This document shows positions 2,677 to 18,034 of a DNA stretch of 20,803 bases, piece after piece. The position numbers and the translations under genes are program-made. Location of the stretch: the IMG/VR virus record IMGVR_UViG_2690316131_000021, one strand, 5' to 3'. The stretch comes from a virus (Duplodnaviria; Heunggongvirae; Uroviricota; Caudoviricetes). The notes below the pieces were generated by a model that was not told the DNA's origin, did no database searches, and saw only the letters and a program-made list of their open reading frames with translations. Numbering within the stretch: position 1 is the first letter of the stretch; every line of letters starts with the position of its first letter.

Positions 2677-3354
2677 TCAGTAGCGATGCAGTGAAGGCGG
2701 CAACTCTTTGTTCTTAAGCCTTTCCCATGCCAGAAGGTTCGTCGGCCCGTCAGGCTCATAAATATCTATATCCCGCGTGTGATTAATTAAAACGCCCCTC
2801 GCCCTCCCGATGATATACGAGAACTCATAGCCGTAGTCGTGGCATATGCCGGAATAGCCAGACTGAATCAGTTTTAATGCGGGATACAACTCACGGAACA
2901 ATGCCTGTGAGCGGTTGGCATAATCCCACAGCCATACAAGGCTGTCTGTTTCTTTTGCGGAAAGCCCGTTGAGCTTCTTCTCTTGTTTGCCAGTATTTTT
3001 CTCGCACTGGCTGAAATAGCAGTCTTCCAGTTTTTCGAACACATCCCACGCCTGATCGGTTTCGAGCATTTTTGCGTGACGGGCTGCGCCGCGTTCTGTC
3101 CAGAGGATGAGGGAGCGGGCATTTTTACCAACTAACCCGATTGTTTCGGGTCTGTTCTTAAACTCGCGTAATTCGTTTTTTTCAATTTTAAAGTAATGCT
3201 TTCCGGGCATGAATCGCGTCGTGTTGTTCAGAAAGTTATCAGAAATGTTTTTGATTTTTGTTCCGTAAAGGTGAGCCAACAGTTCAGTAGTAATTACGGG
3301 GATCTGGTTATAGGTAACAGGGGAAAGGTTTTCGACAGAAATTTGAACAGCCAT
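2677..3354 (-). CDS. ORF6N-domain phage protein (antirepressor/Bro-like N-terminus), copy 1
   Basis: 225 aa; N-terminal ~100 aa homologous to the ORF at 17378..18034; GAGG SD. Confidence 0.75.
3009..3112. repeat. 104-bp perfect inverted repeat, copy 1 (partner at 17620..17723)
   Basis: Reverse complement of 3009..3112 matches 17620..17723 base for base by hand alignment; encodes the identical [34 protein letters not shown] segment in both ORF6N proteins. Confidence 0.8.
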
Positions 3355-3514
3355 AATGACCTCGCGTTTCGATAATTTTTACCTCGCCACCGTCAGGTGC
3401 TAATCATCGTGGTGGCGAACTGTGCGGGGTTAGCACTACCGGTCGAAACATCCGGCGAGCCTTTCGGCTCCCCCACACAGCCCGCCATAAATCGCGAATG
3501 TGACTGTGCTTAGC

Positions 3515-3539
3515 GCATAAAAAAACCGCCAGCGCGGTT
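3515..3539 (-). terminator. Rho-independent terminator between ninE and the ORF6N gene
   Basis: - strand reads AACCGC-gctg-GCGGTT followed by TTTTTTTATG. Confidence 0.55.
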
Positions 3540-3629
3540 ATGCACCGTTTCGATATCCGGGGTGCTAATCCCGACGCCAGATTTTGCTGGCGCGTGAGGA
3601 ATATAGCCCCGAATAAATCATCGCGTCAA

Positions 3630-3812
3630 TCACCTTGTTTTCCTCGCACGATGTCTTAGCCACCGGATATCCCACAGGTGAGCCGTGTAGTTGAAGGTTT
3701 TTACGTCAGATTCTTTTGGGATTGGCTTGCGTTTATTTCTGGAGCGTTTCGTTGGAAGGTATTTGCAGTTTTCGCAGATGATGTCGGTGATACTTCTTCG
3801 CTGTCGCCTCAT
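3630..3812 (-). CDS. ninE: NinE
   Basis: [51 protein letters not shown]... matches lambda NinE as recalled; ATGA overlap with the methyltransferase stop. Confidence 0.8.
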
Positions 3813-4336
3813 GCCGCCATCCTGACGCCCTGCCCGATCGCCATCAATGCCGCTTTGGATACAGTAGTAAACATTCGTCGAGGACTGATGAACGGTCGCC
3901 AAATCAGCAGCATGGAGCCTTTGCTGTTTCCCTTCTTCTCCAGCCCTGTCGATGGTTCGATAAAATTAATCCGTCCATCAGTGATAATGCGAACTTCGTC
4001 GACACTCTCCAGAGCCTTGCTGAACCATCCGACTGACATATCCTCTGGCACAAGCATAACTACCGTCTGTCGCTGTTGTATGCACTGCTCAGCGGCTTTT
4101 TCCACCCACGGCCTGATATTGCTGTACGGTGGGTTATTCCAGATTGCACCGTGGCTTACCCACTCAGAATTGAGCGCGTCGTCGGCCTCAGTTAGCCAGT
4201 GAGCACACAGAGCATTTTTGTCGCTCGCTGCCGAATCCAGCCAGAATCCAAACTCAATATCCAGTGCATCAAAAAGCCAAAGCGGCGTTTGCCAGCAGTC
4301 CTTGTCGTGTGCTGGCGTATTTGATTTGATAGTCAT
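3809..4336 (-). CDS. Phage DNA N6-adenine methyltransferase (Dam family)
   Basis: 175 aa with CWQTP and NPPYS motifs typical of phage Dam-type N6-adenine methyltransferases. Confidence 0.8.
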
Positions 4337-4779
4337 GCAGCCCTACCTTTTCGTTGTGACCATTCATACTCTCGCCGGGAGTCATCACTCCACCGCACGT
4401 TGCGCTCTGAGCCGAACCAGAACATGATTTCGATAAGCTCAGTCATGCTGGCCTTCCGCATTTTGCTGGTACGCACGCCAAGCATGACAACGCCACCGTC
4501 GATACCAGGCACACTTCGTTGCTCCAGTTTTTTGGTCTTAAGCCACAGGGCAGTGAACAGGTCTTTCCAGTCTTCCGGCGCCAGCCGTTGACCATGCCAT
4601 AGCACCTGACGCGAAACATCGTTCAGCATCGGCCACATACGGTCATTCTGCGCTTTGCTGCGCCTGGGTTCTTTAACGTGGACTTCGTGGGGTGACTTGT
4701 CGTCGATGGGTAGTGAGAGAATGGCGTCTATGGCGTTATTTCTGATTGCTTCGTTGCGAAGCAGAAAGGCTTGCTTCAT
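4333..4779 (-). CDS. ninB: NinB-like recombination protein
   Basis: C-terminal two-thirds resemble lambda NinB (SKAQNDRMWPMLNDVSRQVLWHG...[21 protein letters not shown]); start placed at internal MKQAFLL. Confidence 0.7.
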   Translation of the reverse strand: MKQAFLLRNEAIRNNAIDAILSLPIDDKSPHEVHVKEPRRSKAQNDRMWPMLNDVSRQVLWHGQRLAPEDWKDLFTALWLKTKKLEQRSVPGIDGGVVMLGVRTSKMRKASMTELIEIMFWFGSERNVRWSDDSRREYEWSQRKGRAA

Positions 4780-16251: not shown

Positions 16252-16329
16252 CCTGCAACTTGCCGTCAAAGGTGAATAACAATCCTCGCACTCGCGGAGA
16301 TTTCTTTTATACGATATAGGGGAAAAGGT

Positions 16330-17052
16330 GTGGTTAACAATATTGCAAATCACTCTTCGTTTCCGGCTGTAACAATCGACAGCCAGATGCTGTTGAAAAT
16401 GGTCAATGAAGCTCGCAAGTTATGTGGAGAGCCATCAGTACGTAACAACAAATTCATCGAGAAAATTGAGGATGAATTGGAAGGCGAGATCTACACAAAA
16501 AGTGTAGGTCGGAAAAACGGGGCTGACATTGATGTTATCTCCATGACTATCAAGCAGGCGCTTCGTGTTGCTGCTCGCGAATCTAAAGCAGTTCGCCGAA
16601 CACTTGTAGACAAACTTGAAAGTATGCAGGAAGCGCACATTAAAAGCGGTAAATCAGCGAGTGGACTTGTTGAGTATCGTCAAGCGCGAACACTGAAAAT
16701 GACGGTTGAAGCTGTTACCAATCTGTTCGATTTGATGCCAAATCTTGCGCCGGAAGCAAAGCAGACTGCTGCGGCAAGCATAATCAACCCGCTCGTTGGT
16801 TTTAATGCAATACCTCTTCCGGCAATAGAAGAGCATTACTACTCAGCAGGGGAGGTCGCAGAGCAGCTCAGAGTAACGGCAAACAAGATTGGTCGCATTG
16901 CTAACGCAAACAACCTCAAAACTGAGCAGTACGGGAAGTTCTTCCTGGATAAATCTGCGCATTCCAGCAAGCAGGTTGAAACATTTCGGTACAACGAGGC
17001 TGGAGTGCACAAAATAGAGGAACTCATCGAAGGAGAGCGAAAGGCTGCATGA
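16330..17052 (+). CDS. Hypothetical phage protein (240 aa)
   Basis: ORF with GTG start; no family recognised. Confidence 0.5.
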   Translation: MVNNIANHSSFPAVTIDSQMLLKMVNEARKLCGEPSVRNNKFIEKIEDELEGEIYTKSVGRKNGADIDVISMTIKQALRVAARESKAVRRTLVDKLESMQEAHIKSGKSASGLVEYRQARTLKMTVEAVTNLFDLMPNLAPEAKQTAAASIINPLVGFNAIPLPAIEEHYYSAGEVAEQLRVTANKIGRIANANNLKTEQYGKFFLDKSAHSSKQVETFRYNEAGVHKIEELIEGERKAA

Positions 17053-17130
17053 TTTTGACAAGATAGTTTTCCCCAAATGTGGGGAAAAGCCCGAATGGCG
17101 CGGCTTACAGCAAGATAAGGCCTACATGAT

Positions 17131-17160
17131 TTGACAACACCGCATTAACGGGGCTATATT
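17131..17160 (+). promoter_or_regulatory. Candidate sigma70 promoter (-35 TTGACA, 18-nt spacer, -10 TATATT) for ORF6N copy 2
   Basis: Read directly; about 210-nt leader before the ATG at 17378. Confidence 0.4.
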
Positions 17161-17377
17161 CCGCTTCATGGTGCTCAAAACACCTTTGCGATAGCGGAAA
17201 CCGCCCCGTCAGTTATGCGGATTTTTTTATGTCTACGACATTGAGAATTCAATGGTCGGGCGTGCGGCTAATAAAACACCCGCAAGGGAAATATGCCCGC
17301 CGTCTATCGCCGGTTTTGAGCGCCCGACCACCCTCTCAAAAGGGGTGAATTCAAAATATGCGATAGGACATAAAACC

Positions 17378-18034
17378 ATGGCTACTCAAATTTCTGTTGA
17401 ATCCCTTTCCCCAATTACCTATAACCACATCCCCGTCATCACTACCGAACTACTGGCACGACTTTACGGCACTGAGACCAACAACATTAAAGTGAACTAT
17501 ACGCGCAATGCCGGGCGTTTTGTTTGTGGTAAGCACTACTTTAAACTGGAGGGTGGTGAATTGCGGGAATTTAAGAACAAGGTTACTCACAGTAACTTAG
17601 TTGCACCGCGAGCAAAGCACCTCATCCTCTGGACAGAACGCGGCGCAGCCCGTCACGCAAAAATGCTCGAAACCGATCAGGCGTGGGATGTGTTCGAAAA
17701 ACTGGAAGACTGCTATTTCAGCCCGGGCAAAGCGGAACAGCACCCGCAGATCCAGCAGCAATTCACAGACGAAGAAATCATCCTCCTTTGCTATATGCAG
17801 GTACAGATGGAGAATGCGCAGGACATCTGCAAACGTCTGTACCCGATATTGAAGGAACTGAACTCATCATACACGAGCAAGCTGTATGACATCGCGTTTG
17901 AAACTTTTTACACGGTGACGAAAAACAGAGATGTACTGCTAAGGGAGGCGACACGACTTGACCAAGCAAGCGCCCTTTTCGAACGGGCAAAACCAATGCT
18001 GAAAAGCCTTCGGGCGAGACAATTCGAATTTTAA
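17378..18034 (+). CDS. ORF6N-domain phage protein, copy 2
   Basis: 218 aa from [31 protein letters not shown]...; N-terminal ~100 aa paralogous to 2677..3354. Confidence 0.75.
   Translation: MATQISVESLSPITYNHIPVITTELLARLYGTETNNIKVNYTRNAGRFVCGKHYFKLEGGELREFKNKVTHSNLVAPRAKHLILWTERGAARHAKMLETDQAWDVFEKLEDCYFSPGKAEQHPQIQQQFTDEEIILLCYMQVQMENAQDICKRLYPILKELNSSYTSKLYDIAFETFYTVTKNRDVLLREATRLDQASALFERAKPMLKSLRARQFEF
17620..17723. repeat. 104-bp perfect inverted repeat, copy 2 (partner at 3009..3112)
   Basis: See copy 1. Confidence 0.8.

Follow-up and report, generated by a model that had tools for sequence, protein, structure and literature searches.

The window analysed here is a stretch of 20,803 nucleotides from the viral record IMGVR_UViG_2690316131_000021 (IMG/VR; Caudoviricetes), which, to judge from its sequence, is a lambdoid prophage lying beside ybhC (att-lambda) of Escherichia coli. 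Two of its genes, A and B, encode ORF6N-domain proteins and share, in inverted orientation and some 14.5 kb apart, a perfectly identical block of 104 bp. The block is probably the joint of a mosaic gene family, present here in two heterospecific copies, one at either end of the early region, with the copy in gene B overwritten by a patch of A-type sequence. In the course of events that we propose, an A-type gene would have donated, without reciprocal exchange, a short stretch of 49 to 104 bp that overwrote the block of gene B in this lineage; the two blocks would for this reason be identical, and the identity would end where the homology of the modules ends.

The longest exact match between the sense strands of the two genes is of 104 nt (3009-3112 against 17620-17723), base for base as a preliminary description, made by inspection of the sequence, had reported. 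A perfect 104-mer repeated within 20.8 kb cannot, at that length, be put down to chance. A search for inverted repeats returned two pairs of arms, one of 109 nt at 98% identity (3004-3112 and 17620-17728) and one of 173 nt at 72% (3182-3354 and 17378-17550). On the 5' side of the block the coding DNA of A and B is identical at 158 of 246 positions (~65%); on the 3' side it is identical at 159 of 343 (~46%) and essentially unrelated. Pfam profiles and alignment agree with the preliminary description that the perfect block is set in homologous N-terminal parts of two ORF6N-domain genes. In the proteins the block corresponds to residues 82-116, which run towards the linker; because this segment spans the end of the ORF6N match (12-96) and precedes the P22AR_C match (126-197), the block lies at a domain junction. 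An assembly artefact was considered as a cause of the identity and rejected: gene B with the block allele of the window (allele 0) is the same in 10 independent contigs, including a complete chromosome.

The identity of the blocks exceeds what the flanks would predict. All 31 codons of the block that are capable of synonymous change are identical between A and B, compared with 29 of 49 in the N-terminal flank; at the flank rate, 31 of 31 has a probability of ~9e-8 (Fisher p = 8e-6). Among pairs of family genes that differ in both the module N-terminal to the block and the module C-terminal to it (N-module and C-module), the block is identical in 0.35%, and such pairs show on average 8.9 differences in 98 nt. 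Gene B apart, allele 0 is found only together with the exact A N-module or A C-module.

The closest relatives of gene B locate the exchanged segment. B genes with flanks 99.4-100% identical to those of the window (in Z1323HEC0393 and in an IMG/VR contig) depart from the window gene at exactly three sites in the block, one of which exchanges Asp for Glu. In complete genomes gene B was found at 99.5% identity in three, including Z1323HEC0393 with those three block sites, and at 100% in one. The Glu form of the motif (AWEVF) is present in all seven other B-clade protein variants read, among them one on 591 contigs and the Shigella forms; the A-type Asp form (AWDVF) is present only in the B protein of the window type, on 55 contigs. 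The patch would extend over no less than block positions 22-70 (49 bp) and no more than the full 104 bp. This pattern indicates a polarity from an A-type donor to gene B. We infer that gene A of the same prophage, and not a different A-type prophage, served as donor, and that the acting recombination system would have been RecA or Red.

A joint shared by a mosaic gene family

The block is not private to genes A and B; its distribution marks it as a conserved recombination joint of the whole family. In a set of 5,426 complete E. coli genomes, matches to gene A occur in 1,249 and matches to gene B in 874, of which only 99 and 22, respectively, are full-length. Hundreds of the matches are confined to gene positions ~243-346, at 95-98% identity, and others comprise the block with the N-part only or the block with the C-part only. 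A codon-degenerate scan of IMG/VR yielded at least 120 loci, and with further loci 129 instances, which resolve into 72 block alleles and 92 distinct genes. Around the block these 92 genes pair 18 N-modules with 19 C-modules in numerous ways, gene A being N1/C0 and gene B N3/C2. Mean pairwise identity is ~0.9 across the block, a figure inflated by the scan pattern, which fixes first and second codon positions, and drops to ~0.35-0.4 within 20-30 nt of both edges. Homologous recombination would cross over repeatedly within the block because it forms an island of high-identity DNA between unrelated N- and C-modules, and would in this way re-pair control regions and N-modules with C-modules.

Individual genomes carry the recombinants to be expected of such a joint. 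In the nin region of a prophage of NCCP15648 (NZ_CP009050.1), the regulatory region and N-module of A (100%) are followed by the block and a C2-like module; 1.6 kb away in the same prophage, in direct orientation, a different N-module (X_N) is followed by the block and the A C-module (99.7%). A deletion between the blocks of this pair would recreate gene A, so that the pair may be a precursor or a derivative. In SHP24 a gene with a B-like N-module, the block and an A-like C-module occupies the normal slot between NinE and Roi. As in the mosaic joints familiar from lambdoid phages, where brief stretches of conserved sequence serve homologous exchange (modular theory; PMC9836094), a short conserved island stands at a domain boundary between interchangeable modules; the present case differs in that the joint is intragenic, occurs twice within a single prophage in inverted orientation, and bears a datable conversion patch.

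Could the identity be explained without recent exchange of DNA, by purifying selection on a conserved protein motif? The block does encode the most conserved peptide of the family, and the same peptide pattern recurs in more than 120 IMG/VR loci. Third codon positions are nevertheless free to vary, as is evident from the 72 alleles and from the mean of 8.9 differences between genes with different modules; both the contrast in synonymous-capable codons (31/31 against 29/49) and the fact that the window gene B departs from its closest relatives only inside the block speak against constraint on the protein alone, which we regard as barely credible. A different kind of account is that the allele-0 block entered B from another A-type phage at a time well before A and B were joined in one prophage, in which case their co-residence is coincidental. 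Converted B does occur alongside four or more different immunity and early regions and in prophages that have no gene A; no allele is commoner than allele 0, and lambdoid early regions are freely reassorted. This inheritance would still be a conversion patch at the same joint, with only the time and the donor changed; identical blocks are moreover rare in genes that differ in both modules, and inverted co-residence on one molecule would favour intramolecular conversion. We therefore consider independent inheritance unlikely.

Several observations weigh against conversion by a resident A-type gene and the picture of the family built around it. Z1323HEC0108 has a converted B, while its nin slot holds a P63C gene and not gene A. 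Z1323HEC0393 has kept an unconverted B although an A-type gene with allele 0 sits 3.1 Mb away. Because allele 0, with 5 of the 92 distinct genes, is the commonest allele sampled, B could have acquired it from an unrelated phage, and the available contexts cannot identify the donor of the conversion. The inflation of block identity by the scan pattern has been mentioned. As to the RNA control described below, whole-element duplex energies (leader against C4-type RNA, cognate against non-cognate) are like those of shuffled sequences, and both antirepressor activity and RNA control are deduced from homology and complementarity. Set against the synonymous excess and the B relatives that differ at three sites, these points leave recent gene conversion, which the preliminary description had put forward, as the best reading of the identity, with the qualification that the donor need not be the co-resident copy.

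Possible inversion of the early region

Two perfect inverted copies of a block raise the question of whether crossing over between them, by RecA or Red, really flips the 14.5-kb early region. In principle the block is a legitimate substrate for an inversion that keeps both genes in frame. The products would be two in-frame chimeras, AB beside xis-int and BA beside roi-ninG-Q, with pL and pR swapped relative to the late genes and int. The minimal processing segment for homologous recombination in E. coli is ~25-30 bp, and the perfect 104-bp inverted repeat is well above it; both chimeras are open reading frames (ORFs); the exact AB protein is present in two NCBI draft assemblies, as EPO6319418.1 and HCN1781526.1; and the conversion patch implies that heteroduplex has formed at the block.

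Inversion must yield both chimeras, but the exact BA protein is absent from ~15 billion proteins. The longest contig with AB is of 11.4 kb, whereas most contigs with B beside xis-int-ybhC are in the 20-50 kb class. AB alone is no proof of inversion, because inversion must give both products and because module exchange without inversion is common. Queries with the chimeric DNA against the 5,426 complete E. coli genomes returned no exact chimera, the best matches being 89.5% (AB-like) and 87% (BA-like). Two chimera-like relatives examined sit in ordinary nin-region synteny, which means that chimeras arise without inversion. Every locus seen with the exact A or the exact B is in the canonical context: the 240-amino-acid (aa) neighbour upstream of B is on three contigs, of which the one with readable flanks is canonical, and the 242-aa roi ORF is on one contig, also canonical.

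Scans for the exact block gave a similar picture. In IMG/VR there are six loci, all with the A N-module and none with AB or BA; in the JGI metagenomes there are four, one A-type and three with a third N-module joined to the A C-module, and again neither AB nor BA; among GTDB species representatives there are none. The inverted isomer was not seen in the complete genomes or in the IMG/VR and metagenome scans. This negative is weak, because no complete genome covers at least 80% of the window in one place, and because the B-carrying ybhC prophages examined in complete genomes have P63C and not gene A in the nin slot. In annotated near-identical relatives of the region there is no invertase or resolvase gene, the sole site-specific recombinase being the att integrase (Int).

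The preliminary description had called the repeat a substrate for RecA-mediated inversion of the segment; no flipped form was found in related genomes to show such use, chimera matches reaching 89.5% and 87% at best, and we consider it quite improbable that a crossover in the block flips the early region. A stronger version, in which the two cassettes under C4-type RNA control form a reversible recombinational switch with both isomers in populations and AB as one junction of the flipped form, is very improbable indeed. Were it true, the effector C-domains would be exchanged between two RNA-control circuits, Q and the late genes would come under pL, and xis-int under pR.

Known inversions provide a useful comparison. 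Those between rrn operons, insertion sequences (IS) and co-resident prophages of E. coli O157:H7 likewise involve perfect inverted repeats on one replicon, of a size that RecA can use; they have documented isomers and kilobase repeats, whereas here the repeat is of 104 bp and no isomer was found. In contrast to the Hin/Gin/Cin invertases and the shufflons, the repeat here is a 104-bp coding block and not a short crossover site.

The two cassettes and the surrounding prophage

The ORF6N match (PF10543) scores 72.9 bits in protein A and 72.7 bits in protein B (cut-off 27.8) and extends over profile positions 3-86 of 86; at E <= 0.01 it is the sole N-terminal Pfam family found in either protein. 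P22AR_C (PF10548) scores 83.3 bits in A and 40.9 bits in B (cut-off 22.4). Residues 122-225 of A are 82.7% identical to the C-terminus of P22 Ant in a tblastn alignment that covers these residues only, so that the likeness to Ant is not full-length. The preliminary description had compared the C-terminal domains to antirepressor or Bro-type modules: the antirepressor-type part of this holds, in that they are two variants of the P22AR_C family, and the Bro-type part does not. By homology, the two proteins would act as antirepressors.

The exact protein A is on 256 contigs. The neighbourhood of gene B is constant in the contexts read (DUF551 - hypothetical - B - xis - int - ybhC), and its start is best placed at ATG 17378, which gives 218 aa and agrees with the annotation of RefSeq relatives. 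From a further ATG in frame at 17252 the gene would extend upstream (17252-17377), without a stop and across the C4-like RNA element, to an ORF of 260 aa, and this long form is annotated in some database entries; such an upstream start is reminiscent of P1, where icd, ant1 and ant2 overlap. 'Partial' ORF6N proteins of 96-133 aa, of which there are dozens, one of them on 148 contigs, fit draft contigs that end in or just after the block; this suggests that short-read assemblies often break at the 104-bp joint, which could also give rise to chimeric contigs.

Each gene appears to be part of an autonomous, immI-like cassette (Table 1): a promoter would lead into an IsrK-like leader with a1/b1 targets, followed by a C4-type RNA, a second set of targets, the antirepressor gene and a terminator. 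This is reportedly the architecture of the immI operon of P1 as worked out by Citron and Schuster, and cassettes A and B match it. The promoter-like and terminator-like sites that the preliminary description had noted for each gene were found again, together with the C4/IsrK-type leaders. The promoter-like and terminator-like sites are consensus matches, not enriched over shuffles; the Rfam matches of the RNA elements, each of which exceeds its gathering score, carry more weight. Both cassettes have the -10 context GGGGCTATATTCC in common.

The leader of cassette A matches RF01394 (isrK) at 76.6 bits (gathering 50; 3593-3519) and RF03163 (c4-a1b1) at 50.6 bits (gathering 46.7; 3606-3554), and ends in a terminator-like hairpin and T-run at 3547-3524. 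The leader of cassette B is its counterpart, with targets 15 nt apart in both; its hairpin and T-run were read by eye and correspond to no entry in the terminator scan and to no Rfam match over this part. Cassette B has no Rfam match to the C4 clan, and its RNA element matches instead the sRNA-Xcc1 model, which is similarly branched. In either cassette the RNA element has two loops, each with two complementary target copies, one of the B copies (CTCAAAA) being identified by eye; the complementarity script left it out at 17334, where it overlaps the end of the RNA element. The target nearest the gene begins 18 nt upstream of the start codon in both cases (TCGAAAC at 3372-3366 for the ATG of A at 3354; GCGATAG at 17360-17366 for that of B at 17378). 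No loop 7-mer of one cassette is matched in the other. Both cassettes would thus appear to follow a C4-type antisense-RNA logic. There is no sign that the block is itself an RNA target, its duplex energies with the RNA elements being like those of shuffles, and neither gene has a LexA box (CTGT-N8-ACAG) upstream; the sole match, at 16367, belongs to an unrelated ORF and is at chance level.

The nearest known systems differ in instructive ways. P1/P7 immI (c4 - icd - ant1/ant2) has the same order of promoter, a1/b1 leader, two-loop antisense RNA, second targets at the translation start and antirepressor; here the cassettes reside in a lambdoid prophage, the antirepressor is of the ORF6N + P22AR_C type, and no icd homologue was identified. 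With respect to the Rfam C4 clan (RF01695, RF03163), cassette A is above the gathering score, whereas cassette B matches sRNA-Xcc1. In the isrK - orf45 - anrP locus of Gifsy-1, an antirepressor-like protein sets off induction, and its translation is under the control of the leader RNA (PMC4825925). The resemblance to this locus extends to an IsrK-family leader with its own terminator, read-through to an antirepressor-like gene, and a position in a lambdoid prophage near the Q antiterminator; there is, however, no isrJ match downstream in the window, and the role of IsrK as an activator in trans is that of Salmonella. With P22 Ant, gene A shares the C-terminal half (82.7%), and both genes match P22AR_C; the N-terminal domain is in contrast ORF6N, and in place of Arc/Mnt/sar control, of which none was seen, there is a C4-type RNA.

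Table 1. Coordinates of the genes, block copies and cassette features in the window.
Feature	Position	Strand	Basis and remarks
Block copy in gene A	3009..3112	-	Codons 82-116; exact 104-nt match to gene B
Block copy in gene B	17620..17723	+	A-type allele, including Asp (GAT) against Glu in other B-clade variants read
Segment between arms, 14.5 kb, invertible by block crossover	3113..17619	.	ORFs mapped on annotated relatives
Gene A, 225-aa ORF6N + P22AR_C antirepressor-type protein	2677..3354	-	Pfam; nin region, NinE - A - Roi/KilAC - NinG - NinH - Q
Gene B, 218-aa ORF6N + P22AR_C protein	17378..18034	+	Pfam; b region, directly upstream of xis-int-attR-ybhC
Promoter-like site, cassette A, TTGACG-18-TATATT, 10/12	3600..3629	-	Consensus match only
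IsrK-like leader RNA, cassette A, with a1/b1 targets TTAGCAC (3568) and TCGAAAC (3553)	3519..3606	-	Rfam and complementarity
C4-type antisense RNA element, gene A leader, loops GTGCTAA (from 3436) and GTTTCGA (from 3449)	3408..3492	-	RF01695, 75.1 bits, gathering 45
Second target set for A-type C4 loops, TTAGCAC 3403-3397 and TCGAAAC 3372-3366	3366..3403	-	Exact 7-mer complementarity
Intrinsic-terminator-like hairpin directly after gene A stop	2639..2660	-	9-bp stem, GCTTCGGC loop context, T-run
Promoter-like site, cassette B, TTGACA-18-TATATT, 11/12	17131..17160	+	Consensus match only
Leader of cassette B, first targets GCTCAAAAC 17173-17181 and GCGATAG 17188-17194	17173..17232	+	Sequence and complementarity
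C4-like structured RNA, cassette B, loops CTATCGC (from 17304) and GTTTTGAGC (from 17313)	17254..17337	+	RF02221 sRNA-Xcc1, 78.1 bits, gathering 53
Second target set, cassette B, CTCAAAA 17334-17340 and GCGATAG 17360-17366	17334..17366	+	GCGATAG computed; CTCAAAA by eye
Intrinsic-terminator-like hairpin directly after gene B stop	18040..18059	+	8-bp stem, GCTTCGGC loop context, T-run

The early regions closest to that of the window are those of a Stx1 phage and of BP-4795 and JLK-2012-type phages. Mapped on annotated relatives, the minus strand carries hok/sok, Q, NinH, NinG, Roi (KilAC), gene A, NinE, Dam, NinB, Ren, P, O, cII and cro, and the plus strand an S24-type cI, a 332-aa gene, N, cIII, kil, gam, bet, exo, ea22, DUF551, a 240-aa gene, gene B, xis, int, attR and ybhC. 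From this order it follows that gene A lies in the nin region towards Q, and that gene B comes last in the pL operon, ahead of xis-int. Between the two arms lie the promoters, RNA leaders and N-terminal 81 codons of both cassettes, as well as NinE, Dam, NinB, Ren, P, O (disrupted), cII, cro, cI, N, cIII, kil, gam, bet, exo, ea22 and DUF551. The preliminary description had placed the immunity, replication and recombination genes in this segment; the annotated relatives confirm this, add the nin genes, and put the Q/late side and xis-int-att on opposite sides of it.

The slot just upstream of xis (17053-18100) is highly variable among prophages with identical xis-int; its occupants are gene B, AntA + P22AR_C genes of 207 aa, Lambda_ea8_5, DUF4752 or small ORFs, and the slot has the character of a moron-like exchange site. 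Directly after cI, at 9065-10063 on the plus strand, is the gene for a 332-aa protein with no Pfam match, the exact sequence of which adjoins a wide variety of repressors and replication modules (1,233 index blocks); apparently this is a cargo gene of the immunity region that many prophages share. Gene O (6665-7603, minus strand) lacks 67 bp that are present in E110019, where O is intact and measures 939 bp. The deletion removes reference positions 387-453, an iteron/ori region of the ATCCCTCAAAACGAGGGA type, and O is broken into two ORFs (6665-7039 and 6979-7536), a split also found in AP024473.1; the deletion probably makes the prophage replication-defective.

At the other side of the window a hok/sok type I toxin-antitoxin locus (305-629, minus strand) lies downstream of Q, with a sok RNA (RF01794, 118 bits, 455-629) and a Hok/Gef-sized ORF (305-460). 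Window positions 1-128 consist of ~17 copies of a 7-bp tandem repeat (TCGCTGG), in the 3' part of a plus-strand gene that is annotated in relatives as 'YXWGXW repeat-containing protein' or hypothetical. This gene is of 495 bp in E110019 and 660 bp in Z1323HEC0393, and the repeat is translated as SLVAGRW repeats. Since the unit is not a multiple of three, a change in copy number shifts the frame, and phase or length variation is possible; the source contig may end within the repeat. On the plus strand, at the start of cIII, the lambda cIII thermoregulator is present at full length (RF01804, 88.5 bits, 11650-11708).

Reassortment at the joint

Phenomena of this kind are known: a mosaic joint within a gene, combined with a conversion patch between prophage paralogues, amounts to ordinary phage mosaicism and leaves current understanding as it was. 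What genes A and B provide is the documentation of a known mechanism in a specific family, and a clean case, open to dating, of the reshuffling of gene parts among lambdoid prophages. In practical terms, the block appears to break short-read assemblies, leaving many 'partial' ORF6N proteins, and could yield chimeric contigs.

On one side of the in-gene joint of 104 bp stand the control elements and the N-terminus (promoter, a C4-type RNA with its own specificity and the variable part of ORF6N), and on the other a P22 Ant-like C-domain, which is presumably the effector. Exchange of modules there can bring induction signals together with new effector domains among the many prophages that reside side by side in pathogenic E. 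coli, Stx phages included, and such re-pairing is relevant to the cross-induction of prophages.

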